Positions 16,642 through 45,508 of a DNA stretch of 64,000 bases are shown one piece after another. The stretch is from an uncultured Lacinutrix sp. (GTDB lineage Bacteria > Bacteroidota > Bacteroidia > Flavobacteriales > Flavobacteriaceae). Each line of letters starts with the position of its first letter. Within the stretch, counting starts at the first letter, position 1. The stretch spans positions 1-64,000 of the forward strand of contig NZ_CANMRQ010000001.1 in the NCBI RefSeq assembly GCF_947500325.1, written 5' to 3'. The notes beneath the pieces are model-generated. The model worked only from the letters and a program-made list of their open reading frames with translations, was not told the DNA's origin and ran no database searches. The translations under genes and the position numbers were made by a program.

Positions 16642-18129
16642 ATGCTTAAAAACATCTTATTTAAAATCATCAAATTTTCTAAAAACTTATTTTTTATTAA
16701 ACGATTAGTGGCTCTAGCTATACTTGCTTTTATTATTTATATGTTTAGTGGCGATTTACTATTTATGTCTAAAGCTAAAAAATTAGAACCTGTAAAAGCA
16801 AAAAATATTTTAAATACTAAAGAAACACAAAAATACATGTTGCTTTCAGATTATAAAATAGATTGTAACTATCCATTTATGGTAAAAAAGGTATTTAAAA
16901 AAGATAAAATAAGTCACTTTTATTTGCCGCTTGTTAGTCTAGATAAGCCAAAAGAGATTATTGCTCTAATTAGTGAAAATGCAATAAAAGATAGTACAAT
17001 ATTAAAAACAGAAAGTTATGCTGCTAAAGTGAATTTAGCGCAAAACTATTTTGAAAAAGACATCGAGACTAAATTGTTAAATGGAGAAAAAGAGTTTTAC
17101 ATAAAAAACGGTTTTCAATTTTCAGATACTTTTATGCAGTTAAAAATAGATGCGCCACCAACAGCTTTTGGTAGATATTTAATAGCTGTTATTATAGCTT
17201 CACTTTTATTCTTACTACTTTTAATATCATTCATTCCTAATAAAATTTTAAGTAAATGGTTTAATCAGTATACTGGAATTGATTATAGTTTTGGAAATAA
17301 AACCATTAAAAAAATCGTAAAAAATGTTGAGTATGGTAAATACAATACTGCATTAGAACAAATAAAAGCGTTAACAGCAGACCAAAAAACGCAAGCCATA
17401 GATGCTTTAGCTTTAATGCTAAAAGAGAAGCAGATGCAAAAGTGGAAAAAAGCTGAAGGTAATTCTGCTTTTTTCAAATTAGTTGATGGCAGCAGACAGA
17501 TCTATGACGCATGGGAAAAACGCGGTTACGCTTATGCAACTGAAACAGATGAAGATAGTGCTTTAGGTTTTCTTGAATTACTTGAAAAAGGAAAAAGAAC
17601 ACTTAGTCAAGTACAAGGTTTTTTAAAGGTCGATGCCAATAATTTATTAATAAGCGTTAATAAAGGCTTAAGTGAAAAAGAAGTTTGTAAAAGAGCGTTT
17701 CAAGACTGTATATCTGCCGAGCCTAAACATACTATGGCACATTTAAATTATTTAGATGTAATATTACCTAAATGGCTTGGAAGTGAAGAAGAAGTCGATG
17801 CTTTTATTATAGAACATTCTAAAAAATCTACTTTTTTAGAATGTATATTAAAGGCAAAATGGCTTCATGAGAAAGTAAATTATAACGAAGAAGAAAATTA
17901 TACAAACGAGATTGAATCTTATTTAAATACCTTCGAGCCTCAAATACATCAATTAAAAACCGATAGTCCAAATAAATATATTCTTTATAATTACTTATAC
18001 TTTTTAGCAGATGAAGTTGGAAATAAAAAACTATCTAAACGCTACGAGAAAAAATTAAAAGAGTATTTGTCACCAACACTATATTCTCCCTTACGTTCTG
18101 CTGAAGAGATAAAACGTAAGTTAGGTTAA
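16642..18129 (+). CDS. hypothetical membrane protein
   Basis: 495 aa, two TM segments, no recognisable domain. Confidence 0.45.
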   Translation: MLKNILFKIIKFSKNLFFIKRLVALAILAFIIYMFSGDLLFMSKAKKLEPVKAKNILNTKETQKYMLLSDYKIDCNYPFMVKKVFKKDKISHFYLPLVSLDKPKEIIALISENAIKDSTILKTESYAAKVNLAQNYFEKDIETKLLNGEKEFYIKNGFQFSDTFMQLKIDAPPTAFGRYLIAVIIASLLFLLLLISFIPNKILSKWFNQYTGIDYSFGNKTIKKIVKNVEYGKYNTALEQIKALTADQKTQAIDALALMLKEKQMQKWKKAEGNSAFFKLVDGSRQIYDAWEKRGYAYATETDEDSALGFLELLEKGKRTLSQVQGFLKVDANNLLISVNKGLSEKEVCKRAFQDCISAEPKHTMAHLNYLDVILPKWLGSEEEVDAFIIEHSKKSTFLECILKAKWLHEKVNYNEEENYTNEIESYLNTFEPQIHQLKTDSPNKYILYNYLYFLADEVGNKKLSKRYEKKLKEYLSPTLYSPLRSAEEIKRKLG

Positions 18130-18362: not shown

Positions 18363-19106
18363 TTGAGAGCTATTATTGACATTGCTTTTTCTTCTGTAAA
18401 TATTATACTAAGCCTGTTAGTTATTTTATTAATACTATACTGGCTATTTACAATGATTTCTGGAATTGATTTCGATTTAGATATCGACGTAGATGTAGAT
18501 ATTGATGTTGATGCAGATGTTGACGTAGATATTGATACTGCTACTTCTATTACAGACCTTGCTAATGCAGAAATTAATAAAGAGGATGTTCTTAAATACA
18601 ATAGAAAAAACCTAGAATGGTGGCAAATAGTATTACTCTATTTTAACTTTGTAGGCTTACCATTTATGTTCACATTTACATGCTGGATTTTTATATGGTG
18701 GTTATGTACTGTAATTTCTACAAGCATTACAGAATCGTATAACACTAGTTTTGGTTATACATTACTTTTAATAGGTATCGTTCCCTCGTTATTTTTAACT
18801 AAAATTTTTACAACACCATTTAAAGGCTTTTTTAAGAATTTGAATCCCGATGGAGATTTACCAATAAATTTAGCAGGTAGAAAAGGAGTTATGCTATCAA
18901 AAATTTCTGGTGATAAAATGGGATCTGCAGAAGTTGTAGCGAAAGGAAACCCCATGTCTGTCTATGCAAAATCATTTGGAGGTGAAACAATTAATTATAA
19001 ACAAACTATTATTGTTGTTAAACAGTCTGATGACAAAAATTTTTACTGGGTTTTCCCTTATGTAGAAGATGAAGAAAATCCCACTAGACTAGATGAAACC
19101 AATTAA
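18363..19106 (+). CDS. NfeD-like membrane protein (YqiJ-like) with acidic DVDID repeat
   Basis: TM helices plus C-terminal OB-fold-like region; immediately upstream of flotillin, as in yqiJ-yqiK. Confidence 0.6.
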   Translation: MRAIIDIAFSSVNIILSLLVILLILYWLFTMISGIDFDLDIDVDVDIDVDADVDVDIDTATSITDLANAEINKEDVLKYNRKNLEWWQIVLLYFNFVGLPFMFTFTCWIFIWWLCTVISTSITESYNTSFGYTLLLIGIVPSLFLTKIFTTPFKGFFKNLNPDGDLPINLAGRKGVMLSKISGDKMGSAEVVAKGNPMSVYAKSFGGETINYKQTIIVVKQSDDKNFYWVFPYVEDEENPTRLDETN

Positions 19107-19151
19107 AAAACATTATAAACATTAACTTAAATAAAAACTAAATAGTAATTT

Positions 19152-21218
19152 ATGGAAAACGTCACGCAATTTATTGGAATAGGAATAGGGCTTATTCTTT
19201 TTTTAATCGTAATTTATTTTGCAATTATTGCCCTATTTTATAAAAAAGTCCCTCAAGGAGAAGCTTTAGTAAGAACGGGATTTAAAGGTACAAAAGTAGC
19301 AACAGATAAAGGTTTGTATGTAGTCCCTGTATTTCATAAAGTAGAAATCATGGATATTTCTGTAAAGAAAATTCAAATTGAGCGTATTGCAGAAAATGGC
19401 TTATTATGTAAAGATAACATGCGTGCCGATATTAAAGTGGCTTTTTTTGTACGCGTAAATAATGAAGTAGATTTTATTAAAAAAGTAGCACAAACAGTAG
19501 GTTGTGAACGTGCTTCAGATATTTCAACTTTAGAAGAACTTTTCGAGGCTAAATTCTCTGAAGCTCTAAAAACGGTTGGAAAAAAATTCAACTTTGTAGA
19601 GTTATATGAAGCGCGTAGAGAATTTCGTGATGAAATTGTTGATATTATTGGTACCGATCTTAATGGTTATACACTTGAAGATTGTGCCATCGATTATTTA
19701 GAGCAAACCGCTGTTCAATTTTTAAAGTCTGATAATATTCTTGATGCAGAAGGTATCAAAAAAATTACCGAATTGACTGCTGAACAAAACATGAAAGCAA
19801 ACCTTATTAAGCGTGATGAAGAAAAAGTAATTCGTAAGCAAGATGTAGAAGCACGTGAAGCTATTTTAGAGTTAGATAAACAATTAGCCGAAAAAGAAGA
19901 ACAACAAAAAAGAGAGATTGCAAACATAAAAGCACGTGAAGGAGCAGAAACATTAAAAGTTGCCGAAGAAGAACGCCTAAAATCTGAAAGTGCTAGAATA
20001 GCTACTGAAGAAAAAGTAAAAGTAGCCGAAGAGAATATGGCACGTCAAATTATAGTCGCTGCTAAAAACAAGCAACGTACAGATGCCGTAGAAACAGAAC
20101 GTGTAGAAAAAGACAGAATGTTAGAAGCTACAGAAAGAGAACGCATAGTTACTTTAGCTCAAATTGAAAAAGAAAAGGTCGTTGAAGTTGAAAAGAAAAA
20201 CATTCAAGATGTTATTCGCGATAGAGTAATGCTGGAAAAAGGTGTTATAGAAGAGCAAGAAAACATGAAGGATATTCAAGCTTTTAAAACAGCCGATAGA
20301 GATAAACAAGTAAAAATAACGGTTGCAGAAGCTAATGCACAGGAAGACTTAATAAAAACTATAAAAGCTGCGGAAGCCGAAAAAGAAGCAGCAAAACAAA
20401 AAGCAGAAGAAATAAATATAGAAGCAGAAGCAAAGAAACAAGCCAGTCAAAAAGAAGCAGAAGCAAGAAAAACATTGGCAGAAGCTACAGCTAAGGAAGA
20501 AGCTACAAAAGGTTTATCTGAAGCTCAAGTATTACATGCTAAAGCTGAGGCTAATGAGCGTCAAGGTAAAGTAGAGGCTTTAATTATTGAGGAAAAAGCA
20601 AAAGCTGAGGCAGCAGGTATTTTAGCAAAAGCGGAAGCTATAAAAGAACAAGGTATCGCAGAAGCAGAAGTAATAAAAGAGCAGGCTTTAGCAGAAGCTA
20701 TAGGTATTGAAGAAAAAGCTAATGCCATGAAAAAACTAGATGGTGTAGGTAAAGAGCATGAAGAATTCAAACTACGTTTAGATAAAGAATTACAAGTAGA
20801 TTTAGCCGAAATTAATATTCAAAAAGAGATTGCAGATGCTCAAGCAAATGTAATTGGAGAAGCACTTAAAGCAGCTAATATTGATATTGTTGGTGGAGAA
20901 ACCATGTTCTTCGATCAAATTATTGGACAAATCACTAAATCTAAAGGTATAGATCGTTTGGTGAATCATTCAGATAATATTACTCAGGTAAAAGATGCTA
21001 TTCTGGGAAGTGACGATGTTAAGGGTAATCTTTTAGATAAAGTAAAAGAGTTTGCAACTAAATATGGGATCACTTCAGAAGATATTAAAAACCTAACTGT
21101 AGCTAACTTATTAATAGATTTAAAATCTAAAACTACAGATGCTAGTGAATCAAATCTATTTGATAATCTTGCAAACCTTGCAAAAGGATTAGGCTTATCT
21201 GATAAAAAATTAGGGTAA
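19152..21218 (+). CDS. flotillin / SPFH (band-7) family protein (YqiK-like) with long E/A/K coiled-coil
   Basis: N-terminal TM, SPFH domain, about 300 aa of EAxAK coiled-coil repeats; 688 aa. Confidence 0.8.
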   Translation: MENVTQFIGIGIGLILFLIVIYFAIIALFYKKVPQGEALVRTGFKGTKVATDKGLYVVPVFHKVEIMDISVKKIQIERIAENGLLCKDNMRADIKVAFFVRVNNEVDFIKKVAQTVGCERASDISTLEELFEAKFSEALKTVGKKFNFVELYEARREFRDEIVDIIGTDLNGYTLEDCAIDYLEQTAVQFLKSDNILDAEGIKKITELTAEQNMKANLIKRDEEKVIRKQDVEAREAILELDKQLAEKEEQQKREIANIKAREGAETLKVAEEERLKSESARIATEEKVKVAEENMARQIIVAAKNKQRTDAVETERVEKDRMLEATERERIVTLAQIEKEKVVEVEKKNIQDVIRDRVMLEKGVIEEQENMKDIQAFKTADRDKQVKITVAEANAQEDLIKTIKAAEAEKEAAKQKAEEINIEAEAKKQASQKEAEARKTLAEATAKEEATKGLSEAQVLHAKAEANERQGKVEALIIEEKAKAEAAGILAKAEAIKEQGIAEAEVIKEQALAEAIGIEEKANAMKKLDGVGKEHEEFKLRLDKELQVDLAEINIQKEIADAQANVIGEALKAANIDIVGGETMFFDQIIGQITKSKGIDRLVNHSDNITQVKDAILGSDDVKGNLLDKVKEFATKYGITSEDIKNLTVANLLIDLKSKTTDASESNLFDNLANLAKGLGLSDKKLG

Positions 21219-21280
21219 TTATATATAATTCACTTGCTTGTTTAAGTAACAGGTGAGTGAATTAAATCTTTTAATAATTA

Positions 21281-21748
21281 GTGTCAAAATTTAAGGTCAT
21301 TTTAATTGTTATTCTATCTGCAATAGTAATCTATTTAGTAGATAATATATTCTTAAAAGAAGAATACCTAAAGGGAGTTGTTATAGAAAAAAGGTACCAA
21401 GATAAAATGATTATTACTGGGACAAGTAATAATACTCGAACAGGACATTCTGTTGTAAATACTCCAACTTATGATCCTAATGGCTATAGATTAATTATTA
21501 AAGATAAAAATGATAATCAAATAGTGATAAGGAGTAACTCTGATATTTATACCAAAGCTTACAAAGGTGACTCTGTAAAATATCGTGTATCAAAAGGGCT
21601 TTTTTCTAGAAAAATATGGAAAGCTTCCATTGTTGAAATAATACCAAATTTTGAATACAGAAAACAATTTTTAAATAAAAAACTATCACCACTAGAAAAG
21701 CTCCTTAAAACAAAAGGTGATTTTAACAAAAAAGAATATGACAAGTAA
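21281..21748 (+). CDS. small membrane-anchored hypothetical protein
   Basis: N-terminal TM, 155 aa, between flotillin and giant ATPase gene. Confidence 0.4.
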   Translation: MSKFKVILIVILSAIVIYLVDNIFLKEEYLKGVVIEKRYQDKMIITGTSNNTRTGHSVVNTPTYDPNGYRLIIKDKNDNQIVIRSNSDIYTKAYKGDSVKYRVSKGLFSRKIWKASIVEIIPNFEYRKQFLNKKLSPLEKLLKTKGDFNKKEYDK

Positions 21749-21768
21749 TTTCCCTAAAAGGAAAAACT

Positions 21769-24700
21769 ATGGAAAAAACTAATATAGATAACAACATTCA
21801 GCTAGACGGCGGCACCTATGAGATTATTCAAGGGCGTTTACAAAAACAAAAAAGTGAACTGCTTTCAAGGCTTTCTCAATTAAACGATGCTCGTAAAAAC
21901 GTTTTTGGTAGTGTTGAAACCAAGCTTATTGCTAACAACCGTATTAATACAGAAAATAACTGTATAGCAAGAGATATTGTTACCATAGGTGATACCTGTT
22001 TTTTTGGATATAATGTACACTTTGGGTTGCGAACCGATATCACACTTGCAGATGTGTTTAGTGTGTATACATACGATAACGACCATTTTACCATTCAGTC
22101 TTTAGGCCTAATAGAAGACCCTACGTTTATAAACGATTTTACTAATTTATATAAGTATTATAGAAATACCATTTTCTCAAAATTTGCCATAGTTGGCAAT
22201 TACTTACATATGGTATTTCAGTTAAGCGACAGTATTACTGATATAAAAACCTTTAAATGGCTTATCAACGATGGTGCACTTCAGTATATTGATAACCGTA
22301 GCGAACATGAATTTAAATTCCCTAATCAGCATGAATTTAATTGGGTAGAATCTACCAGAGATAATCATGTGTATGGAAAACACTCGCACATATCAATATT
22401 AGACAAAGTTTTTGTAGAAACCATTGGTGGAGATTTAACTATTAAAATAGAAGATAATACAGATGATGGTAAAGGCATTTACGATGAATCTGTACTACAT
22501 CCAGACCAAACCCTAGATGATGGACAATATAAGTACGCAGACCTAGGTAATTTAATAGCTCTAGAAATTAAACCCTTTCAAGAGCAATCAAGATATTTTG
22601 TATACAATCATAAAATACAAGAAGTAAAAAAAATAGATAGTATTGGAGATGCCTGTATACTATTACCAGACGATCAAGGTATTATTTTTGCAGATGGTTA
22701 TTACTTACAATCTGGTGATTTTAAGTTATTTGATAATAGTGTTTCTAACGTTAAATTCAAAAAAAAGGTAAGCTCTCCTAATGGTGAAGATTTCCTATAT
22801 GTGTTTTACGAAAGTAAAAAAGGCTTGTATGTATTGATGTCTTATAATGTTATAGACCAGCAAGTAAAAACACCTATTATTTGTAACGGTTACACTATTC
22901 TTAATGATGGAGAATTATGCTACTTTAAAACCGAAGACGAACAAACAAAACACCATGTTATTCAAATATGGCAAACACCATTTATTAAAGGCGATGTTAT
23001 TCCTTCAGAACATACAGACAGTCTATTATATAAAATAGGAAATAAAGATATTGTAAAAGCAATGGCAGAATGCCAAGCTTTAATAACACTTTTAAATAAA
23101 GAAGATAGTTACGACGGCTTATATGATGATATTGCTAAATCCTCAAGCGATATTTTAAATAGTTACTATTGGATAACAGAACCAGAAACATTTCTTGTTA
23201 ACCAACCCTTAACAGAATTAAATGAAGCAGCCAATGCAGCTATTGATGAATTTGAAAAAGTAGTACAACTACGTAAAACAGCTGCAAATATTACTAAAGA
23301 TACACAAGCTAAAGCAGATGGTGTTTTTGGAAAAATTAAAAGTAGTACGTTTAAATCTATTGAAGATTTTGTACTTGTTTTATCACAGTTACGAACACTT
23401 AGAGGAGAAGTTATTGGTTTAAATGACATTCGCTATGTCGATACTGCATTTATAAGTGCATTAGAAGCCGAAATTATAGCGCAAAACGATAAAATTTCTG
23501 AACGTTGCGTACAGTTTTTACTAAATGATAAAGCACTTCTACCTTACCATAATCGTGTTGCTGAAAAAGAGACAGAATTAGAAGGCATAAAGAAAGTTGT
23601 TGCAGCTAAAAAATTAGAAGAAGAAGTCAATCAAATTGCTGCCGATTTAGAAATGCTCATCGATATCGTTTCTAATTTAGAAATTGAAGATGCCTCGCAT
23701 TCCACACAAATTATTGATAATATTTCATTGATTTTTGCAACCATTAATCAACTAAAGGCAGGCTTAAAAAACAAGTTAAAGTCCTTAGGTGAAAAAGAAG
23801 CTTCTGCAGAGTTTGCTTCACAATTAAAGCTAGTAGATCAAAGCATTATCAATTACTTAGATATTGCTGCTACACCAGAAAAAACAGATGAGCTCTTAAA
23901 TAAAGTCTCTGTACAATTAGAAGATTTAGAAGCTAGGTTTGCAGATTTTGAAGATTTCATTACTCAAATTATTGAAAAAAGAGAAGAAGTATATAATGCT
24001 TTCGAAGCCAGAAAAAATAGTCTAGTTGAAGCCAGAAACAAAAAAACAATAACTTTAGAAGCAGCTGCAAATCGCATTCTTAAAGGTGTTACTAAAAAAG
24101 CACTAAGCTTTAAAACTACAGCTGAAATTAACGGTTATTTTGCATCCGATTTAATGATTAATAAGCTTCGCGATATTATCACTAATCTTAAGGATTTAGA
24201 TGATGCAGGGAAAGCTGAAGCTATTGAAACAGGATTAAAAGTAGCTAAAGAAGATGCGGTTAGAAAATTAAAAGATACCCAAGATTTATACGAAGATGGC
24301 GAAAATATTATCAAACTTGGTAAGCACAGGTTTGGCGTTAATAAACAACCATTAGATCTTACCATTGTTTATAAAGATAATACTTTAAAGTACCATCTAA
24401 CTGGTACAGATTTTTATCAGTCTATTGAAAATGATACTTTAATTAAGTCTCAAAAATATTGGAATCAAGAATTGGTATCAGAGAATAAAGAGATCTATAG
24501 ATCTTCATATCTTGCCTATAAACTATTTATAAATGCCTCTAATAATCTAAAGCAACTAAGCGATACAGAATTACTTAAACTTGTAAAAAGTGAAAGTAGT
24601 AAAAACTATTCCGAAGGTTATATTAAAGGAGTTCATGATGAAGATGCTACCAAAATTTTAAAAACGTTAGTTAGCAAACATCATGATTTAGGATTATTGC

Positions 24701-26658
24701 GTTATCAATCTATAGTGAGAGCATTTGGGCAATTTTTTTGGAACACTTTAGACAATGAAAACAGAGCGTCTTGGAATCAAAAAATAAAAGCTTCAGGTGA
24801 AGTGCTATCTGCTTTTCCAGATAGCAAAGAATATGAAATTTTTGTAGAGATCTTAAGTCAAGAATTGCAAGATTCTGTGTTTTATGATGTCATTTCTAAA
24901 CACTATAAAGGGCAAAAAAATACACTTGAATTTGAAACAGCATCCTATTTATTTGATGAATTACAAAACAACGATACGTTTTGTAGTAGCAAAACAGCCC
25001 AAGAGTTATTTGATAACTTTACAAAAGCCTTAAAAAATAAAAAAGCAATTACCGCTTTTAAAACCTCTCTTAAAACCGCTTTAGGAGATAAAAATATTAC
25101 AATCAATGCGGTGCAATTAGCTGTACAATGGGTAAGCTCTTTTATAAAATCACAGGCTCCAGAGTATATAGATTACATTTATGAAGTTGTTGCACTTATG
25201 CTATTTAAAAGTGACACAAAACTAGAAACTATTCAAGTAAATGCTACTTTAATTATTAAAGATTTAAAAGGAAGTCATACCACAATTAGTGAAGGCGATT
25301 TTCAATTTAATTACCATAATTTTATAAATCAATTACAACACTTTGCTTCTGTAGAAGTACCAGCATATAATGCCTATCGTGAAGCAAAACACACAGTTAC
25401 CGAAACTCTAAAAGAAGAACTAAAATTGGAAGAGTTTAAACCTAGAGTACTCTCTTCTTTTGTGAGGAATAAGCTTATAGATCAAGTGTATTTACCTTTG
25501 TTTGGCGATAATTTATCCAAACAATTAGGAAGTGTAGGTGATAACAAGCGTACAGATCGTATGGGTATGCTATTGCTTATATCGCCTCCTGGTTATGGTA
25601 AAACAACCTTAATGGAATATATGGCAAATCGTTTAGGACTCATATTTATGAAAATAAATGGTCCAGCAATAGGTCATGACGTCACTTCTGTAGACCCGCT
25701 AACAGCAAAAAATTCTGCAGCCCGAGAAGAATTGAACAAGCTTAATCTTGCTTTTGAAATGGGTAATAATGTGATGTTATATTTAGATGACATACAACAT
25801 TGTAACCCAGAGTTTTTACAAAAATTTATATCACTTGCAGATGGTACACGTAAAATAGAAGGGATTTATAATGGTAAACCAAAAACTTACGATTTACGTA
25901 GTAAGAAGTTTTGTGTGATTATGGCAGGGAATCCATATACAGAAAGTGGTGATAAGTTTCAAATTCCTGATATGTTAGCAAACCGTGCCGATATTTATAA
26001 TTTAGGTGATATTATTGGAGATACAGCAGATTTATTTAAGCTAAGCTTAATTGAAAACTCACTAACTTCTAATCCTATTCTTCATCAATTGAGTAGCAAA
26101 TATTTTGAAGATATTTATCAATTAATAGAAGTTGTAGAATCTGGAAATCCTGCTAATTTAGAACTTAAAGGCAACCATACCAAACAAGAAGTTCAAGATT
26201 ATTTGGCAGTATTAGATAAAGTAGTTGCCATTCGCAATACGGTATTAAAGGTAAACGAAACTTATATTAAATCTGCTGCTATGGATGATAGTTACCGTAT
26301 AGAACCTTCATTTAAATTGCAAGGATCTTATCGTGATATGAACAAATTGGTGGCCAAAATAGTGCCAATAATGAATGATAAAGAGCTACAAACTCTTTTG
26401 CTATCACATTATGAAAACGAATCGCAAACCCTTACCAGTGCTGCCGAAGCCAATTTATTAAAATATAAGGAGCTTACAAGTTCTATAGATACTATTGAAA
26501 TTGAGCGTTGGCAAACCATTAAAGATACGTTTGTAAAAAACAATAAGCTTAAAGGTTTTGGAAATGAAAATGAAATGGCGCAAGTACTAAATCAAATGAT
26601 GCAATTTAGCGAGCATTTAGAAGGGATCCAGAATGTTTTAAAGAAAGGTTTAAAATAA
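21769..26658 (+). CDS. giant (1629 aa) protein with C-terminal AAA+ ATPase domain (AAA_5/MoxR/dynein-like)
   Basis: Walker A ISPPGYGKTT (about aa 1267), Walker B MLYLDD, sensor region VIMAGNPYTE...ANRADIYNLG; coiled-coil mid-region. Confidence 0.7.
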   Translation: MEKTNIDNNIQLDGGTYEIIQGRLQKQKSELLSRLSQLNDARKNVFGSVETKLIANNRINTENNCIARDIVTIGDTCFFGYNVHFGLRTDITLADVFSVYTYDNDHFTIQSLGLIEDPTFINDFTNLYKYYRNTIFSKFAIVGNYLHMVFQLSDSITDIKTFKWLINDGALQYIDNRSEHEFKFPNQHEFNWVESTRDNHVYGKHSHISILDKVFVETIGGDLTIKIEDNTDDGKGIYDESVLHPDQTLDDGQYKYADLGNLIALEIKPFQEQSRYFVYNHKIQEVKKIDSIGDACILLPDDQGIIFADGYYLQSGDFKLFDNSVSNVKFKKKVSSPNGEDFLYVFYESKKGLYVLMSYNVIDQQVKTPIICNGYTILNDGELCYFKTEDEQTKHHVIQIWQTPFIKGDVIPSEHTDSLLYKIGNKDIVKAMAECQALITLLNKEDSYDGLYDDIAKSSSDILNSYYWITEPETFLVNQPLTELNEAANAAIDEFEKVVQLRKTAANITKDTQAKADGVFGKIKSSTFKSIEDFVLVLSQLRTLRGEVIGLNDIRYVDTAFISALEAEIIAQNDKISERCVQFLLNDKALLPYHNRVAEKETELEGIKKVVAAKKLEEEVNQIAADLEMLIDIVSNLEIEDASHSTQIIDNISLIFATINQLKAGLKNKLKSLGEKEASAEFASQLKLVDQSIINYLDIAATPEKTDELLNKVSVQLEDLEARFADFEDFITQIIEKREEVYNAFEARKNSLVEARNKKTITLEAAANRILKGVTKKALSFKTTAEINGYFASDLMINKLRDIITNLKDLDDAGKAEAIETGLKVAKEDAVRKLKDTQDLYEDGENIIKLGKHRFGVNKQPLDLTIVYKDNTLKYHLTGTDFYQSIENDTLIKSQKYWNQELVSENKEIYRSSYLAYKLFINASNNLKQLSDTELLKLVKSESSKNYSEGYIKGVHDEDATKILKTLVSKHHDLGLLRYQSIVRAFGQFFWNTLDNENRASWNQKIKASGEVLSAFPDSKEYEIFVEILSQELQDSVFYDVISKHYKGQKNTLEFETASYLFDELQNNDTFCSSKTAQELFDNFTKALKNKKAITAFKTSLKTALGDKNITINAVQLAVQWVSSFIKSQAPEYIDYIYEVVALMLFKSDTKLETIQVNATLIIKDLKGSHTTISEGDFQFNYHNFINQLQHFASVEVPAYNAYREAKHTVTETLKEELKLEEFKPRVLSSFVRNKLIDQVYLPLFGDNLSKQLGSVGDNKRTDRMGMLLLISPPGYGKTTLMEYMANRLGLIFMKINGPAIGHDVTSVDPLTAKNSAAREELNKLNLAFEMGNNVMLYLDDIQHCNPEFLQKFISLADGTRKIEGIYNGKPKTYDLRSKKFCVIMAGNPYTESGDKFQIPDMLANRADIYNLGDIIGDTADLFKLSLIENSLTSNPILHQLSSKYFEDIYQLIEVVESGNPANLELKGNHTKQEVQDYLAVLDKVVAIRNTVLKVNETYIKSAAMDDSYRIEPSFKLQGSYRDMNKLVAKIVPIMNDKELQTLLLSHYENESQTLTSAAEANLLKYKELTSSIDTIEIERWQTIKDTFVKNNKLKGFGNENEMAQVLNQMMQFSEHLEGIQNVLKKGLK

Positions 26659-28126: not shown

Positions 28127-28143
28127 GGTATTAATTTTAAAAA

Positions 28144-28215
28144 GAGAGCAAGCAGGATTTGAACCTACAACCTCGGGTTTGCAACCCGCTATTTTTCCAG
28201 TTAAACTATTACTCC
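28144..28215 (-). tRNA. tRNA-Cys (GCA)
   Basis: manual cloverleaf: acceptor GGAGTAA/TTGCTCT (GU pairs), D GTTT/AAAT, anticodon loop TTGCAAA, T-loop TTCAAAT. Confidence 0.65.
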
Positions 28216-28229
28216 CCTATTTATATAAG

Positions 28230-28302
28230 TTGGATGCATGAGACTTGAACTCACAACCTCCTGCTTGAGAGGCAGGCGCTCTTCCAATTGAGCTAGCATC
28301 CA
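28230..28302 (-). tRNA. tRNA-Glu (CTC)
   Basis: acceptor TGGATGC/GCATCCA, D GCTC/GAGC, anticodon stem CCTGC/GCAGG loop CTCTCAA, T-loop TTCAAGT. Confidence 0.6.
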
Positions 28303-28309
28303 ATAAAAA

Positions 28310-28381
28310 TCACGTAAGTAGGACTCGAACCTACAAATTTAGAAATGTTGCCTAATGTTTTTCCAATTAAACTATTACGTG
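28310..28381 (-). tRNA. tRNA-like gene with non-canonical anticodon loop (CAACATT; paralog of the tRNA-Cys unit)
   Basis: perfect 7-bp acceptor CACGTAA/TTACGTG, D GTTT/AAAC, T arm GTAGG-TTCGAGT-CCTAC; position 33 is A, anticodon ambiguous. Confidence 0.45.
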
Positions 28382-28394
28382 TTTTAAAAAAGTA

Positions 28395-28467
28395 AAGAAC
28401 GTATGAGATTCGAACTCACAACCTCAGGATTGTATGTCAAGCGCTCTTCCAGTTGAGCTAACGTTCT
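28395..28467 (-). tRNA. tRNA-like gene with disrupted anticodon stem (loop CATACAA; paralog of the tRNA-Glu unit)
   Basis: perfect acceptor AGAACGT/ACGTTCT, D GCTC/GAGC, T arm GTGAG-TTCGAAT-CTCAT; anticodon stem CTTGA/TCCTG pairs only 3 of 5. Confidence 0.4.
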
Positions 28468-28477
28468 TTACAATACT

Positions 28478-29841: not shown

Positions 29842-30537
29842 TTACAAAAAAGGTTCTAAAAAACCTATTAGCGATTTATCGTATTTGGACCATCGTATAC
29901 CATGGCCACTTTTTATTCTTATTTCAAAAACAATTTCATGTTTGTAATGATAAAACGTATTCCACCATGTATGATTATCTATTATATTATTTATAATGCC
30001 TTTTACTTTATCTAATTTTTGTTGTGGAGAACCTTTAATTTCTCCCCAAAAGGAATCTTCTGTTCTATCAATATGTTTTTCCCAAGCACGAACACCAACA
30101 CTAATTTGCTTATTATAATGACTCAAGCTATTGTCTAGCATCTCTTTTTTGGTCATTGGCAAACCTTCTACAGTTTTTATTGTTGCGGGCGTTTGTCGTT
30201 GCCCCATTAATAAAAGAACATGCTCAAAAGACACGCTTTGTATTGTACTGCAAATTATGTTTTTATTTATTACGTCGGAGACAAAATCTCGTTTATTAAT
30301 TTCTGAAATTGCATGTTTAAAAAATGAAAAAGAACCTTCTAAATTAGGAGCTATTTCTTCTGAAAAATAAGGGAATTGTACATTTTTTGACACACCATAT
30401 TTATGAAAATTAATACAGTTCTTTGAAAAAACACGTAGATAGTCTTCATGAAAAAACATAGAATTAACTGTTAACCAATCTTTTGAAAAAAGATCTTTTG
30501 AATCTAATAGTAGTTGTGTTAATAGAGTTGCTTTCAC
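29842..30537 (-). CDS. hypothetical protein
   Basis: 231 aa, no motif recognised. Confidence 0.4.
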   Translation of the reverse strand: MKATLLTQLLLDSKDLFSKDWLTVNSMFFHEDYLRVFSKNCINFHKYGVSKNVQFPYFSEEIAPNLEGSFSFFKHAISEINKRDFVSDVINKNIICSTIQSVSFEHVLLLMGQRQTPATIKTVEGLPMTKKEMLDNSLSHYNKQISVGVRAWEKHIDRTEDSFWGEIKGSPQQKLDKVKGIINNIIDNHTWWNTFYHYKHEIVFEIRIKSGHGIRWSKYDKSLIGFLEPFL

Positions 30538-31592
30538 TTTTTTATATTATAAAAGTTATTTCTCATTTCATAAACGAGTTTATTTACTAAATCTAAATCA
30601 GGTCTATCTATTAATTGAGAATTATCATAAATAGCATCAAGTTCTTCTTTCATAGTTTCTGCGCGAGACACTAAATCGTCGTATTCAAATTCAGCATTTT
30701 TTATTGATAACAAAAAGTCTCTATCTGTTCTTCGAACATTAATTTCATTATGTAATCCTATTTCTTTAGCCATATGTAATAACCTAAACGTATGCATCAT
30801 GTTTTTTGCATCATAGTTTTTACTGTGAGAAATATTACTTTTATAACGTTCTTCATTTCTTTTTGCTACCCAATCCCAATATTCTTTATATTTTTTGCAA
30901 TAGGTTGAATACCCATCTACATTAAAATATAAAACGGCAATAGGTTTTTCAGATTTTGGTACAGAACTTAAACACACTTCATTTCCGTTTTCTCTAACTA
31001 TACCATTATAATTTAATTCTTCATTATAAAATAGATTATAACAATCTTTCATATGAGCTAGATTTACTAATCCACAATGTTTTGGATCTAAATTCTTTTT
31101 CTTTACAAAATCTTTAAACACTATAGATTCCTTTTCTTCTCTTACATAACAAAAATCTTCCACAGACTTTCTTTCTTTTTCAACAGGGTTTACAATTTTC
31201 TTGTTTAATCCTCTTGCTTTTTTTATTTGAGTAAATGCATAATTAGCAAAGGTGTTCTTACAAAGTTTAGATACAAAATCTTTCTTTTTAATAGTATCAA
31301 ATATTGGATCCTTATAAAGTATGCACTCCTTAGGAACATTTAATAGTTCCATAATATTTGGATTATTTTTAGAGAGTAATTCAATAAACTTTCCTAATTC
31401 ATAATAAGCGATATCGTTCGTTTCATTATTAATTTGACCTATATAATTAAGCGAGTAAAATTGTGCTTTTGGTAAAATAAAAACACCTCTTATATCAGTA
31501 TCAGAAGTGGCAGTATCTAAGCCATAAGCTCTACTGCCACTAATACTTTCTAATATTATCGATCCTGATTTTTTTAATTCTTCTATTGTCAT
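30534..31592 (-). CDS. Pol-beta-superfamily minimal nucleotidyltransferase (RNA-repair-associated type, tentative RlaP-like)
   Basis: GSRAYGLDTATSDTDIRGV (GS...DxD NTase motif); 352 aa; overlaps neighbours by 4 nt. Confidence 0.55.
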   Translation of the reverse strand: MTIEELKKSGSIILESISGSRAYGLDTATSDTDIRGVFILPKAQFYSLNYIGQINNETNDIAYYELGKFIELLSKNNPNIMELLNVPKECILYKDPIFDTIKKKDFVSKLCKNTFANYAFTQIKKARGLNKKIVNPVEKERKSVEDFCYVREEKESIVFKDFVKKKNLDPKHCGLVNLAHMKDCYNLFYNEELNYNGIVRENGNEVCLSSVPKSEKPIAVLYFNVDGYSTYCKKYKEYWDWVAKRNEERYKSNISHSKNYDAKNMMHTFRLLHMAKEIGLHNEINVRRTDRDFLLSIKNAEFEYDDLVSRAETMKEELDAIYDNSQLIDRPDLDLVNKLVYEMRNNFYNIKK

Positions 31593-32335
31593 TGTATTTC
31601 TTTTAAGAAGAATGCATTAAATTCTTCAGGATTCGGCTTTTTATTAATTAAGTCGTTTTTAATACTATTATTTTCTGTAACAATATCTCTAACTAATGTA
31701 ATTAAAGTGTTGCTAACAGGTTCTGTACTTTTTTCAATATGTTTACTTTTTAAATGAATTAAATCATTTAATATAGTATGGTATTTCTCATCAATTATTG
31801 GGTACAATTCCGTGAACAAAACTGGCGGAATAGTTTCGTTTTTATAAACCCAATTAGCACACAAAGCAGTTCTTATGGCGTAGAAAAAACTTTTTAGCGT
31901 CATTTTATCTGTATCTAGTGTTTCTTCAAAACGGTAGCTCATACTATGGTAATGATAAAAACCAGATACAGGATTAAAGTTGTTTTCTGCCAAAGTTCTA
32001 ATTTCTTTTAAAAAATCGCCATTCGCTCTATACACAATAGGAGAAAATAACCAGCCTAAAAAAGACGCATTAGATTTTGCTAATAATTTTAAAGCTTTGC
32101 GAAATTCCCAACCAGAGCCATCAAGATCGTCTTCTGTCATGAACTCAATAGTATCTTTTTGTTCCCAAAGGTTTAAATACCACTCTTTTTTATGTTTATA
32201 TACAAAACGGATATCGTAATCTGAATCTGGTGACTCAAATCCCCAAGCTCTACTTCCAGATTCTACCGCAAATAGTATGTCTATATTTTTGTCTTTCTCT
32301 ATTTCAGAAAGTTTTTCTAGTATTTTAGTTTTCAT
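31589..32335 (-). CDS. Pol-beta-superfamily minimal nucleotidyltransferase (paralog of 30534-31592)
   Basis: ESGSRAWGFESPDSDYDIRFV motif; 248 aa. Confidence 0.55.
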   Translation of the reverse strand: MKTKILEKLSEIEKDKNIDILFAVESGSRAWGFESPDSDYDIRFVYKHKKEWYLNLWEQKDTIEFMTEDDLDGSGWEFRKALKLLAKSNASFLGWLFSPIVYRANGDFLKEIRTLAENNFNPVSGFYHYHSMSYRFEETLDTDKMTLKSFFYAIRTALCANWVYKNETIPPVLFTELYPIIDEKYHTILNDLIHLKSKHIEKSTEPVSNTLITLVRDIVTENNSIKNDLINKKPNPEEFNAFFLKEIQ

Positions 32336-33779
32336 TTTTCTTTAAATTTTTAAGATCTAGCATAATAGCTTCTCTATTAAATCCATCCAACTGTTTTTCG
32401 TAACATTTATCTAAGATATTTTTAAATTTTTTAGATGGCTTTAATCCTAAATCGATTAAATCTCTACCTAAAACTACAGGTTCAATTTTTCTTTCTCCAA
32501 ACTTTTTAAATAGCTCAAAGCATTTTTCGGAAGTTTCATGTCTATCTAAAATAACATTCCTTCCTGTTCTACCTGCAGAATCTGCTTTACTTTGCCAGCC
32601 TAAGATATCCAGTCTACACTTATTATGTAATCGTTTCCATGCAGCATCTTTTGCTTGAGAACGAAATAACTGACCAGGCATCATATGTAAACCTACAATT
32701 GTTTTTACTTTATTAATTAAATCTTTATCATTAGTTAAACGCATTAAAAAAGCTTCAGCTATTTTAATACCCGCAACGTCATGTCCATGAGCTTTTAAAT
32801 CTGGAGTTGTTGTAGAAGGTTTTCCAACATCATGTAATAATGCTCCAAACATATAAGCAAGCTTCCATTTTTCAGGAATTAAATGTCTTAATTTAGCAGC
32901 ATTGTCCAGAACCATTTTTGTATGAATCCATACATCGCCTTCAGGGTGCCATACTGGGTTCTGAGGACAACCGATTAAATCCTTTAATTCAGGAAAGTGT
33001 ATTAACCATCTTGAATCTTTTAAAAAATCTAGACCTATTGATGGTTTATCTGCTTTTAATAATAATTTTTCCCACTCAACAAAAACACGTTCTCTAGGCA
33101 ATTCAGAAAATGTATTTACCATTGATTGACATAAAGTCATTGTTCTTTTTTCTACTTCTCTTCCCTTTCTTGGCAATAATTGCATAATACGCAAGACTCT
33201 TAATGGGTCTTCAATAAAAGTATTTTTATCTGTTGCTTTTATTATTCCTTTTTTTAAATCCTCTATACCATTAAAAGGATCAACAATTCTGCCATTATGT
33301 AAATTTAAATACATACTGTTAATTGTTAAATCTCTTCTTTTTCCGGCTTCTTTAGGTGTCATTTCTTGATCTAATTCAATTTCAAATCCTTTATGTCCAA
33401 TTCCAATTTTATTTTCTCGTCTTGGAATAGAAATATCTATTTCTATATTATCTATTGTTGTTTTAATGACACCAAATGATTTCCCTACTAAATTACATGG
33501 TATATTTAATTCTTCAATTAAAACAACTAATTGAGGATAAGACAAACCGTAAACTTCAATGTCGATATCTTTTAGAGGTAATTTTTTTATACTATCTATA
33601 ACTGCTCCTCCAATTAACATTGCAATTCCGCCTTGTTCTTCTATTTCTTTTAATAAGTTTTTAAAGTTTTCTTCTTTAAAGACTTTATTTCTAAGGCTTT
33701 CAATATTCTTCATAATTTTTTCGCTGTTAAATAATCTAAGATTTCTATATATACTTATTTTCAATAATAGAGTGAGCAA
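32325..33779 (-). CDS. CCA-adding tRNA nucleotidyltransferase-like protein with C-terminal HD phosphohydrolase domain
   Basis: head motif GGAVID...DIDIEV, HD motif LLHDVGKP; 484 aa. Confidence 0.7.
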   Translation of the reverse strand: MLTLLLKISIYRNLRLFNSEKIMKNIESLRNKVFKEENFKNLLKEIEEQGGIAMLIGGAVIDSIKKLPLKDIDIEVYGLSYPQLVVLIEELNIPCNLVGKSFGVIKTTIDNIEIDISIPRRENKIGIGHKGFEIELDQEMTPKEAGKRRDLTINSMYLNLHNGRIVDPFNGIEDLKKGIIKATDKNTFIEDPLRVLRIMQLLPRKGREVEKRTMTLCQSMVNTFSELPRERVFVEWEKLLLKADKPSIGLDFLKDSRWLIHFPELKDLIGCPQNPVWHPEGDVWIHTKMVLDNAAKLRHLIPEKWKLAYMFGALLHDVGKPSTTTPDLKAHGHDVAGIKIAEAFLMRLTNDKDLINKVKTIVGLHMMPGQLFRSQAKDAAWKRLHNKCRLDILGWQSKADSAGRTGRNVILDRHETSEKCFELFKKFGERKIEPVVLGRDLIDLGLKPSKKFKNILDKCYEKQLDGFNREAIMLDLKNLKKNEN

Positions 33780-40563: not shown

Positions 40564-40676
40564 TAGTCCAGGTGGGACTCGAACCCACGACACACGGATT
40601 ATGAATCTATACAGGAACTTTTTTTTGCTGAAGGCGAAAAGTATTTTCGTTGCTCTACCTTCTGAGCTACTGGACT
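40564..40676 (-). tRNA. aberrant tRNA-like gene (113 nt) with perfect acceptor/D/T arms but a 46-nt insertion in the variable region and a non-canonical anticodon arm
   Basis: acceptor AGTCCAG/CTGGACT, D GCTC-AGAAGGTA-GAGC, T GTGGG-TTCGAGT-CCCAC; anticodon region ACGAAAATACTTTTCGC. Confidence 0.4.
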
Positions 40677-43521: not shown

Positions 43522-43779
43522 AATATTGACCGCGAAAGCGGTTATCTTTTTAGTTAAATAATTATGTTGTGGAATAAACTGGATTAGCTCGCTAATTTTT
43601 ATTTTTTTAGCTGTGCTCGTGAATGCAAAAGCATTTTAAACCAGTATCTTCCGGGCTTAACTCAATGAATTTTATTTCATTAAATAAGATTCGTTGAATT
43701 CGTAAACTCATTTCTACCGGACGTATAGACCTACCCTTCGACTCCGCTCAGGACATGCTTTGCTATTATTCCTTTTTTG

Positions 43780-43852
43780 GGGTGATTTCGGGACTCGAAC
43801 CCTATTCTTCTCATTCACAGTGAGACATTTTACCTGTTAAACTAAAACCACC
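43780..43852 (-). tRNA. tRNA-His (GTG)
   Basis: anticodon arm TCTCA-CTGTGAA-TGAGA; T-loop TTCGAGT; C73. Confidence 0.65.
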
Positions 43853-43883
43853 ATTTTTAATTCCCATGAAAATGGGAATCTTA

Positions 43884-43958
43884 GTTCTGACAAAAGGATT
43901 TGAACCTTTATCCACAAACGTATCAGGTTTGCACTTTACCAATTAAGCTATGTCAGAA
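43884..43958 (-). tRNA. tRNA-Ile (GAT)
   Basis: acceptor TTCTGAC/GTCAGAA; anticodon arm CAAAC-CTGATAC-GTTTG; T-loop TTCAAAT. Confidence 0.7.
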
Positions 43959-43963
43959 TGTTG

Positions 43964-44034
43964 TTAACCCAATAGGACTCGAACCTATACCTCAAGAGTC
44001 AAAGTCTTGAATGCTGCCATTACACCACAGGTTA
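43964..44034 (-). tRNA. tRNA-Gln (TTG)
   Basis: U1-A72; anticodon arm CAAGA-CTTTGAC-TCTTG; T-loop TTCGAGT. Confidence 0.65.
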
Positions 44035-44040
44035 ATTTTG

Positions 44041-44113
44041 TAAGCTTAATAGGACTCGAACCCATATTCCCAGAGTCGTATTCTGGAGTGTTATCCAATT
44101 ACACCATAAGCTT
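44041..44113 (-). tRNA. tRNA-Arg (ACG)
   Basis: acceptor AAGCTTA/TAAGCTT; D GTGT/ACAC; anticodon arm CCAGA-ATACGAC-TCTGG. Confidence 0.7.
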
Positions 44114-44118
44114 ATTTG

Positions 44119-44192
44119 TATCCTACCTCGGACTCGAACCGAGAAATCACAGCGCTTAAAACTGATGCCTTTTCCAATTTGGCCAGTAGGAC
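44119..44192 (-). tRNA. class-I-shaped tRNA with Leu-type anticodon TAA (short variable arm; T27-T43 mismatch)
   Basis: acceptor GTCCTAC/GTAGGAT; anticodon loop TTTAAGC; variable GATTT; A73. Confidence 0.5.
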
Positions 44193-44197
44193 ATTAG

Positions 44198-44271
44198 TAC
44201 AGGAAGAGAGATTTGAACTCTCAAAATCTTGTTTCTAAAACAAGCGCGTATGCCAGTTCCGCCATTCCTGC
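44198..44271 (-). tRNA. class-I-shaped tRNA with Leu-type anticodon TAG (short variable arm)
   Basis: acceptor GCAGGAA/TTCCTGT; anticodon arm CTTGT-TTTAGAA-ACAAG; variable ATTTT; A73. Confidence 0.5.
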
Positions 44272-44276
44272 ATTAG

Positions 44277-44350
44277 TTGAGATGTCAGGAATCGAACCTG
44301 AACCTTTCGCCTTATGAGAGCGATGCTCTACCTAGTTAAGCTACATCTCA
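44277..44350 (-). tRNA. tRNA with CAT anticodon (Met elongator or Ile-lysidine; not initiator-like)
   Basis: acceptor TGAGATG/CATCTCA; anticodon arm TCGCT-CTCATAA-GGCGA. Confidence 0.65.
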
Positions 44351-44355
44351 ATTTG

Positions 44356-44427
44356 TTGAGGCAATAGGGATCGAACCTATGACTGTCACGATGTAAGCGT
44401 GATGCTCTTCCGCTGAGCTATACCTCA
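44356..44427 (-). tRNA. tRNA-Val (TAC)
   Basis: D GCTC/GAGC; anticodon arm TCACG-CTTACAT-CGTGA; T-loop TTCGATC. Confidence 0.7.
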
Positions 44428-44432
44428 ATTTG

Positions 44433-44504
44433 TACTCTATAAGGGAATCGAACCCTTGTCTTCCGATAGAAAGTCGGATGCACTAACCACTATGCTAATA
44501 GAGC
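44433..44504 (-). tRNA. tRNA-Glu (TTC) with U at position 37
   Basis: anticodon arm TCCGA-CTTTCTA-TCGGA. Confidence 0.6.
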
Positions 44505-44510
44505 ATTTTG

Positions 44511-44582
44511 CGGTTCATACGAGAGTCGAACTCGTATCTCCCGAGAGACAGTCGGGAAGGATAGCCATTACCCCAATGAACC
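44511..44582 (-). tRNA. tRNA-Asp (GTC) with U at position 37, G73
   Basis: acceptor GGTTCAT/ATGAACC; anticodon arm CCCGA-CTGTCTC-TCGGG. Confidence 0.6.
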
Positions 44583-44589
44583 TTTAAAA

Positions 44590-44743
44590 ATTGAAGCTGA
44601 AATCGAAGTCGAACCTGAACTTATATAGCTTCGTTTTTATCTTCATTTTGTACATCTACCTGGATTAGTTCGTATCACACATATTTTTTTAAATGAGTGA
44701 GCTAAATCTTTAGTGCTATCCATTACACCATAAATGCTAATTG
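44590..44743 (-). pseudogene. decayed tRNA remnant(s): intact-looking 5' half (GCATTTA-TG-GTGT-AATGGATA-GCAC) with degenerate anticodon/T region and an unrelated GAAGCT...AGCTTC hairpin
   Basis: 5' half resembles the Arg/Gln genes of the array; no complete cloverleaf can be drawn. Confidence 0.35.
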
Positions 44744-44826
44744 TGGAAGTAGTAGGACTCGAACCTACATGCTCCGAAGAGACCAGATTTACAGTCTGGC
44801 GAGCCAACCAATTGCTCAATACTTCC
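44744..44826 (-). tRNA. tRNA-Tyr (GTA), type II with 14-nt variable arm
   Basis: acceptor GGAAGTA/TACTTCC; anticodon arm CCAGA-CTGTAAA-TCTGG. Confidence 0.7.
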
Positions 44827-44920
44827 AATTTTGAGACAAGGATGAGATTGTTACACGTTCTCATCAAGTCACAAATTGAATGTCACATTTTTAAACAGGT
44901 TTAAAATGTTTTCATCATTG

Positions 44921-44993
44921 AGACAAGGATGAGATTCGAACTCATAAAAAACAGTTTTGCAGACTGTTACTTTAACCATTCAGCCACCTTGTC
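44921..44993 (-). tRNA. tRNA-Cys (GCA), second copy
   Basis: acceptor GACAAGG/CCTTGTC; anticodon arm ACAGT-CTGCAAA-ACTGT; preceded by a 19-bp direct repeat of its own 3' end. Confidence 0.6.
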
Positions 44994-44997
44994 TTTG

Positions 44998-45070
44998 CGA
45001 TAGTGATAGGATTCGAACCTATAACCAAGGACTTAACAGATCCACGCTCTGCCATTGAGCTACACTATCA
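44998..45070 (-). tRNA. tRNA-Asn (GTT), G73
   Basis: acceptor GATAGTG/CACTATC; anticodon loop CTGTTAA. Confidence 0.65.
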
Positions 45071-45075
45071 TTTTG

Positions 45076-45148
45076 AGGAGTTACGGAGACTTGCACTCCA
45101 TTCTGCACATTGCAAACGTGCTGTTTTGGCTTGGTAAACTATAACCCC
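45076..45148 (-). tRNA. tRNA-Ala (TGC) with G3:U70 identity pair and unusual T-loop TGCAAGT
   Basis: acceptor GGGGTTA/TAACTCC; anticodon arm GCACG-TTTGCAA-TGTGC. Confidence 0.6.
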
Positions 45149-45159
45149 ATAATTTTTTG

Positions 45160-45246
45160 CGGAGAGCAAAGGAATCGAACCTTCACCGCCATAAAGCGGA
45201 CTTGTTTAGCAGACAAGCGCAACAAACCAGTATTTGCCTACTCTCC
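45160..45246 (-). tRNA. tRNA-Ser (GCT), type II
   Basis: anticodon arm CTTGT-CTGCTAA-ACAAG; long variable arm; G73. Confidence 0.65.
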
Positions 45247-45259
45247 ATTTATTTATATC

Positions 45260-45333
45260 GTCTAAGAGACAGGATTCGAACCTGCAACCTCTCGCTTCCA
45301 AAGCGAGTAAACTATCCATCGTTCTCCTCTTAG
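45260..45333 (-). tRNA. tRNA-Pro (TGG), C1-G72, A73
   Basis: acceptor CTAAGAG/CTCTTAG; anticodon arm CTCGC-TTTGGAA-GCGAG. Confidence 0.7.
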
Positions 45334-45338
45334 TTTTG

Positions 45339-45425
45339 CGGAAGGAGTGGGAATCGAACCCACACGAGTCGTTATCTCCGAACAGTTTTCAAAACTGTGG
45401 CCACCACCTATTGGCTTGCCCTTCC
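45339..45425 (-). tRNA. tRNA-Ser (TGA), type II
   Basis: anticodon arm ACAGT-TTTGAAA-ACTGT; long variable arm; G73. Confidence 0.65.
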
Positions 45426-45434
45426 ATTTTTTTG

Positions 45435-45508
45435 TTGACGTAGTGAGAGTCGAACTCACATAACCTCGATTAAAAGTCGAGTGCTTTAGCCAGTTAAGCT
45501 ACACGTCA
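45435..45508 (-). tRNA. tRNA-Lys (TTT)
   Basis: acceptor TGACGTG/TACGTCA; D GCTT/AAGC; anticodon arm CTCGA-CTTTTAA-TCGAG. Confidence 0.7.

Follow-up and report, generated by a model that had tools for sequence, protein, structure and literature searches.

A conserved operon of an NfeD-like protein, a flotillin and a giant ATPase

The 64-kb stretch of DNA from an uncultured Lacinutrix sp. analysed here (hereafter the window) carries a cluster of four co-directional genes on the plus strand (18363-26658), which encode a YqiJ/YuaF-type NfeD-like membrane protein, a YqiK-type flotillin, a small membrane protein and a giant AAA+ protein. Comparison across genomes showed that this cluster is a PspA-less ('abbreviated') member of an operon family described previously in a comparative genomics study of the phage-shock-protein (PSP) response (PMC11237479; preprint 2020, mSystems 2024), and its products probably serve the ATP-driven remodelling of flotillin/NfeD (and PspA) assemblies at the cytoplasmic face of the membrane. 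The open reading frames (ORFs) called in this region (18363-19106, 19152-21218, 21281-21748 and 21769-26658, all on the plus strand) match exactly those of an initial annotation, which had been made without database searches; the intergenic gaps are 45, 62 and 20 nt, the latter two having been given there as about 60 and 20 nt. The gene list of that annotation, a yqiJ/yqiK-like pair followed by a small transmembrane (TM) protein and a giant AAA+ protein, was upheld by homology and TM prediction, and the motifs that it had listed (SPPGYGKTT, LYLDD, MAGNP and LANRADIYNLG) were all present in the translation. TM segments were found in the NfeD-like protein, the flotillin and the small protein, and none in the giant.

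The protein family to which the giant belongs comprises 959 clusters at 50% identity (E ≤ 0.001), with more than 5,300 proteins in a word-indexed search, and a scan of one genome per species (185,579 species genomes) gave at least 584 loci encoding such a protein. The best 80 of these at least 584 loci were analysed together with others (the L001-L082 set), by calling ORFs and searching them with the window proteins using jackhmmer; the best 80 represent the Bacteroidota, Planctomycetota, Verrucomicrobiota, Desulfobacterota, Kiritimatiellota and Clostridia. Gene order was counted in the 64 loci with ≥3.5 kb of sequence upstream of the giant, and in 61 of them (~95%), from at least six phyla, the NfeD-like, flotillin and giant genes follow each other in this order on one strand, with median gaps of 22 nt (NfeD-like/flotillin) and 138 nt (flotillin/giant). 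The same order was seen in the gammaproteobacterium Teredinibacter (L083), where YjfI (DUF2170) and PspA are encoded upstream, and the trio is also present on a TARA scaffold. The coupling of the flotillin/NfeD pair to the giant that had been suspected from the single genome was thus confirmed, and is not adjacency in this genome only. Pairwise identities of the giant and of the flotillin across loci are correlated (r = 0.81, with species phylogeny not factored in), as co-inheritance would give, and the cluster is intact in the window, in Flavivirga algicola (L002) and in one further locus (L085), even though the flanks of the window and the Flavivirga locus differ.

The published operon combines CesT/Tir-PspA with three further proteins, one of which has three TM segments and, as its prototypes, YqiJ and YuaF; its ATPase was termed a 'novel AAA+ ATPase', the flavobacterium Dokdonia donghaensis provides an example (ANH61663.1; section 19 and Table S3), and shortened operons without PspA are also mentioned (PMC11237479). 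The arrangement itself is therefore already in the literature and not a discovery of this work, contrary to the initial annotation, which could not assign it to a described system; what we add is the placement of the predicted ATPase module in the MoxR clade, its DD Walker B, a stalk free of insertions and deletions, a hairpin behind the flotillin gene and a variable slot for small genes. In our set, 31 of 63 loci have the CesT/Tir-PspA dyad directly upstream, orthologous examples being L001 and L003-L017, and among the Flavobacteriaceae loci with enough upstream sequence it is missing only from the closest relatives of the window. Recurrent neighbours across the 82 loci are limited to the NfeD-like gene, the flotillin gene and, in half of them, this dyad.

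Predicted architecture of the giant ATPase

The giant (1629 aa; 21769-26658, plus strand) is a soluble protein matching DUF3686 (residues 30-467, E 6.5e-184) and DUF7902 (residues 588-671) in Pfam, with AAA_5 and AAA matches just above their cut-offs (residues 1268-1391). The initial annotation had named homology to a known stand-alone family as an argument against a joint system; the giant does fall into an existing Pfam family, DUF3686/DUF7902, which is itself uncharacterised. AlphaFold models built from an input of 45 sequences (36-87% identity) had a mean predicted local distance difference test score (pLDDT) of 81.9 for residues 1-1150 and of 81.2 for residues 1101-1629. From N- to C-terminus they predict a helix (residues 16-46), a β-rich, propeller-like domain of ~26 strands inside DUF3686 (residues 52-402; 21922-22974, plus strand), long helices that make up a stalk of ~420 residues including DUF7902 (residues 419-839; 23023-24285, plus strand), a small β unit (residues 848-885), a helical domain (residues 911-1146) and finally the AAA+ core, lid and C-terminal helices. 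The earlier view of the protein as largely α-helical or coiled-coil thus agrees with the predicted stalk, but not with the β-rich domain in front of it. Residues 1-1150 had no relative among PDB sequences, and segment-wise scans of the giant and of the flotillin beyond their main domains added nothing significant.

The AAA+ α/β core (residues 1231-1420; 25459-26028) contains the Walker A motif SPPGYGKTT with K1278 (25582-25608), the Walker B motif LYLDD with D1340 and D1341 (25777-25791), the sensor-1 residue N1388 (25930-25932) and a candidate arginine finger, R1406 (25984-25986), all on the plus strand. Conservation was assessed in 28 representatives with 27-46% identity, in which Walker A, the DD Walker B, the sensor-1 Asn and R1406 are invariant, and in which the 420-residue stalk has zero insertions or deletions; identity to the window protein across phyla is 68% in the AAA+ core, versus 38% for the whole alignment. 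In the propeller-like domain, the invariant residues N338-G-E-D341, H396 and W401 mark a conserved face. Searches of PDB sequences with the AAA+ part gave P-loop matches only, with the single sequence as well as with the family profile. The solved structures nearest to the modelled module are the MoxR ATPases CbbQ and NorQ, and on this predicted structure the ATPase is placed in the MoxR/midasin/dynein (AAA_5) clade; its NP...R motif has the same arrangement as in MoxR proteins. For the Vps4 or classical AAA clade we looked for an MIT domain and for Vps4 or Cdc48 as the closest fold, and the giant showed neither. Walker B has the DD form in DnaA as well (IDDIQ), an AAA+ protein that hydrolyses ATP slowly and behaves as a switch, and by this analogy the motif suggests that ATP hydrolysis by the giant may be slow, regulated and triggered by a partner.

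The NfeD-like protein and the flotillin

The NfeD-like gene (18363-19106, plus strand; 247 aa) has a TTG start, which is consistent with the N-termini of its homologues, and lies directly 5′ of the SPFH gene in the same direction, across the 45-nt gap. Its product has three TM-like segments (residues 14-32, 89-107 and 133-151). The full-length protein had no match in the Pfam or NCBIfam scan, and a profile of 28 homologues could be aligned with almost the whole of E. coli YqiJ (hhalign probability 95.9%, E 5e-9, 177 columns). Pfam YqiJ_N was matched by 10 of the 28 homologues, the window protein itself not being among them, and Pfam NfeD by a single homologue (E 0.0049). When the profile was compared with the PDB, the only match, a weak one, was to 2K14, the soluble domain of YuaF from B. 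subtilis (E 0.025), and the C-terminal domain appears to be β-rich and OB-like. The loop between TM1 and TM2 contains an acidic alternating repeat (DFDLDIDVDVDIDVDADVDVDID; 18468-18536, plus strand), and all 28 aligned homologues carry an acidic D-x-D stretch at this position. The loop holds 17 D+E and 4 K+R, and it is probably cytoplasmic according to the positive-inside rule; speculatively, the D-x-D repeat might bind cations or polyamines.

The flotillin (19152-21218, plus strand; 688 aa) starts with an N-terminal TM segment (residues 10-28) and an SPFH domain, continues in a long coiled-coil region rich in A, E and K, and closes with a C-terminal domain. Its identity to E. coli YqiK is 30% over 453 aa (E 1e-45), and that to its orthologue in Zhouia spongiae is 81.5%. 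The full-length protein matched no Pfam or NCBIfam family at E ≤ 0.1, and its first 250 aa scanned alone matched Band_7 on residues 31-176 (E 1.2e-14); the proportion of A, E, K, Q and R is 53-73% across residues 201-500, and we assume that the A/E/K-rich coiled coil suppresses the full-length match through bias correction. The Pfam flotillin C-terminal domain was not matched, either at full length or with residues 201-516 and 501-688 scanned separately, and no relative of the flotillin was found among PDB sequences.

A hairpin and a variable slot between flotillin and giant

A terminator-like stem-loop of 17 bp (21226-21264, plus strand) begins 8 nt behind the stop codon of the flotillin gene, with a minimum free energy (MFE) of -21.4 kcal/mol and a z-score of -5.3, and in Flavivirga a 14-bp stem of different sequence is found at the same place. 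We surveyed 67 related loci, taking the best 50-nt fold per region: the mean MFE after the flotillin stop was -19.2 kcal/mol (mean z -3.7, z < -2 in 44/67 loci), compared with -13.6 kcal/mol after the stop of the giant (mean z -1.8, z < -2 in 22/67) and -11.5 kcal/mol inside the flotillin coding sequence. The hairpin 3′ of the flotillin gene is thus kept in structure and not in sequence, and is on average stronger than the one behind the giant. A T-tract follows it in only 10 of the 67 loci. The hairpin is a candidate attenuator or 3′ stabiliser that would set a high ratio of flotillin to motor.

Between hairpin and giant, the window encodes a small bitopic membrane protein (21281-21748, plus strand; 155 aa, GTG start), with a TM segment at residues 6-24 followed by a domain of ~110 aa. 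It belongs to no Pfam, NCBIfam or PADLOC family and was represented by three clusters only in a collection of 5.8 billion proteins. Both relatives that could be placed occupy the same slot between flotillin and giant, in Flavivirga algicola (144 aa, 52% identity) and in L085 (146 aa, 76% identity), and because these homologues are 144-146 aa long, they support the GTG start at 21281. One database model of the protein is 113 aa long and 100% identical, and starts at Met43, and hence lacks the TM segment. No homologue was found in the other 80 loci. The small protein is thus not a general component of the system, but a lineage-specific accessory in a variable slot. The gap between flotillin and giant exceeds 250 nt in 24 of the 61 loci, two of which (L053 and L060) have split giants, and most of the other wide gaps are occupied by small ORFs that are unrelated to each other, in many cases hydrophobic, and members of small lineage-specific families only. 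Examples of such slots are L003 8546-9970, L019 8618-9704 and L081 7642-9759.

Proposed function and alternative explanations

In the remodelling function that we favour, the 3-TM NfeD-like protein and the flotillin would form an SPFH scaffold, either a cage or a clamp, at the inner membrane on its cytoplasmic side, and the giant would oligomerise through its AAA+ ring, as a hexamer by analogy with MoxR ATPases. The stalk of fixed length would bring the giant to this scaffold, on which the propeller-like tip would dock, and the use of ATP would lead to disassembly or recycling of flotillin/NfeD, or of PspA where the operon encodes it. Alternatively, ATP may be used for freeing client membrane proteins captured by flotillin-NfeD acting as an ATP-independent holdase; for S. 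aureus FloA-NfeD, an ATP-independent holdase activity for unfolded proteins is reported (PMC11222466). The hairpin behind the flotillin gene would let the scaffold be made in large excess over the motor, and the 155-aa membrane protein would be a lineage-specific adaptor outside the core. Membrane remodelling had also been suggested in the initial annotation, and matches the inference made for the published operon family.

A more far-reaching version of this proposal, which we put forward as tentative, is that the giant is the missing bacterial remodeller of membrane-bound assemblies of flotillin and of the ESCRT-III-like PspA, a functional Vps4 analogue on a MoxR-type motor, with a ring of six modules, rigid stalks of ~420 residues, a propeller gripping the flotillin/NfeD cage, and hydrolysis that is slowed by the DD motif and triggered by the scaffold. 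According to a 2025 review, a Vps4-like ATPase for PspA appears absent from bacteria, and the roles of the Band-7 partners of PspA are still listed as undetermined (PMC7619361). The cluster bears on how flotillin scaffolds and PspA polymers are dismantled or recycled, and on the energy source for this, and a large, strongly conserved ATPase almost always encoded beside NfeD and flotillin is the obvious candidate for the energy-dependent step. The giant occurs in cultured and genetically tractable genera, such as Flavobacterium, Chryseobacterium, Sphingobacterium, Pontibacter and Teredinibacter.

Several observations weigh against ATP-driven remodelling by this cluster. In three loci (L038, L061 and L063), the giant is encoded without the NfeD/flotillin pair nearby and among unrelated neighbours. 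Neither PspA nor CesT was detected in the 64-kb window by tblastn with the Zhouia PspA and CesT queries, and hence any link to PspA would here have to act in trans. The Walker B of the giant departs from the canonical hhhhDE pattern, with Asp replacing the catalytic Glu. MoxR ATPases are normally partnered by a VWA/MIDAS protein, and no such partner was found among the four proteins or in the inspected Pfam lists of neighbouring genes. The strong hairpin behind the flotillin gene might terminate transcription completely, and the giant would then form a transcription unit of its own. Finally, the literature searched contained no experimental work on any member of the family.

The absence of a conserved third-party client gene from the 82 loci and the missing VWA/MIDAS adaptor, as used by MoxR systems, speak against a rather unlikely alternative, that the giant is a MoxR-type maturation chaperone or long tether for one client, such as an enzyme complex of the membrane or an apparatus for secretion or motility, with the flotillin as a platform only, and neither flotillin nor PspA being remodelled. 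In favour of this alternative, CbbQ and NorQ, the structures nearest to the ATPase module, activate specific clients, β-propellers and long stalks typically serve to bind clients and to set distances, flotillins are described as scaffolds recruiting other proteins, and the Teredinibacter locus runs directly into genes for a rhomboid protease and an M90 peptidase.

The initial annotation had also raised membrane surveillance or defence, for which no positive support was obtained. In an anti-phage system, flotillin/NfeD would sense the perturbation of the membrane by phage and the giant would be effector or switch, and the patchy distribution of the family (at least 584 matches in the scan of 185,579 species genomes, and 959 clusters at 50% identity), the differing flanks of the window and L002, the variable small-ORF slot, the direct neighbours of two of the three orphan giants, which are a Uma2 nuclease-like gene in L061 and a STAND NTPase in L063, and the very name of PspA as phage-shock protein are all compatible with this. 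However, the AAA+ core with its 68% identity across phyla is unlike fast-evolving defence genes, the recurrent partners PspA and CesT/Tir are envelope-stress components, and the domain scans detected no nuclease, toxin or other effector domain in the cluster proteins. There was no significant PADLOC match for the four proteins or for ten flanking proteins either: the best E-values (0.0065 and 0.015) were obtained on the two small membrane proteins only, and the flanking proteins gave weak receiver-domain matches only. A defence function is therefore improbable, and was rejected on the lack of significant PADLOC matches for cluster and flanks. A stand-alone DNA repair ATPase with incidental flotillin adjacency, as the name of DUF3686 in Pfam ('ATPase involved in DNA repair') and the NCBI family and product name ('DNA repair ATPase') would have it, is very improbable indeed and was likewise rejected, as 61 of 64 loci from several phyla keep the adjacency, the scans found no domain for DNA binding and no nuclease or helicase domain (RuvB matches the P-loop only, far below the cut-off), repair genes did not recur in the inspected neighbourhoods, and the literature searched mentions neither DUF3686 nor the name 'DNA repair ATPase' together with SPFH, so that this database name is probably misleading.

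Transcription signals and flanking genes

A scan for σ70 promoters, with a model that is not suited to Bacteroidota promoters, gave fewer sites than in shuffled sequences, and the Bacteroidota -7 motif TAnnTTTG was found neither upstream of the cluster nor in its gaps. A co-directional ORF of 495 aa (16642-18129, plus strand) lies 233 nt upstream of the cluster, and was rejected as a fifth member, as it has no homologue in the 82 loci and no family match, a very weak DUF5906 match being its sole family signal. In Teredinibacter, a rhomboid protease, an M90 peptidase/SEC-C protein and a zinc-ribbon protein (L083 13302-15256) are encoded on the same strand starting 10 nt after the giant, and these may be a membrane-proteostasis extension of the operon.

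On the minus strand of the window, 30534-33779 contains two genes for RlaP, a nucleotidyltransferase of an RNA-repair pathway, and a PolyA_pol+HD (CCA-adding-like) gene, adjoining an array of four tRNA genes. The same RlaP pair directly follows the giant in L085 (13433-15240), and 26791-30537 is therefore probably an insertion that separates the RlaP genes from the cluster in the window. Two tight tRNA arrays were found on the minus strand, one with 18 genes (43778-45508) and the array of four (28143-28468), the latter including a 'Cys' tRNA with the unusual anticodon ACA (28310-28381) near a normal tRNA-Cys(GCA). In addition, a 113-nt Rfam tRNA match on the minus strand (40564-40676; 48.3 bits), which was not called by ARAGORN, could represent a tRNA that contains an insertion or an intron.

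Comparison with known systems

The cluster shares with the operon described in PMC11237479 its three core proteins and their order, its occurrence in Flavobacteriaceae and the architecture of the giant. It differs from it in lacking the CesT/Tir-PspA dyad and in having the additional 155-aa gene, which is shared with its closest relatives only, and the ATPase is here placed, on predicted structure, in the MoxR/AAA_5 clade. Both E. coli yqiJ-yqiK and B. subtilis yuaF-floT represent the homologous pair in the same order. In E. coli, the next features are sibD/ibsD, sibE/ibsE and hldE, with no giant ATPase, and the window flotillin is 135 residues longer than E. coli YqiK (688 vs 553 aa).

HflK/C-FtsH is an established example of an SPFH cage that works with an AAA+ protease, and resembles the system proposed here in that a scaffold of the SPFH family is paired with an AAA+ machine at the inner membrane; a cage of this kind is cited as a 24-mer (PMC10936438). 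In contrast, FtsH is a membrane-anchored protease of the classical AAA+ clade and HflK/C faces the periplasm, whereas the giant has neither a TM segment nor a protease domain and appears MoxR-like. With the MoxR family (CbbQ, NorQ and RavA) and the AAA_5 modules of midasin and dynein, the giant has in common the AAA_5 match and a modelled β-hairpin before sensor 1, and it differs from MoxR proteins by an N-terminal extension of ~1,230 residues, the DD Walker B and the lack of a VWA/MIDAS partner. Comparison with ESCRT-III/Vps4 of archaea and eukaryotes is limited in the window itself by the absence of PspA, but in half of the loci an AAA+ ATPase is genetically linked to a member of the ESCRT-III superfamily, PspA, and it is this linkage that gives rise to the idea that the giant might drive the ATP-dependent recycling of a membrane-bound polymer.

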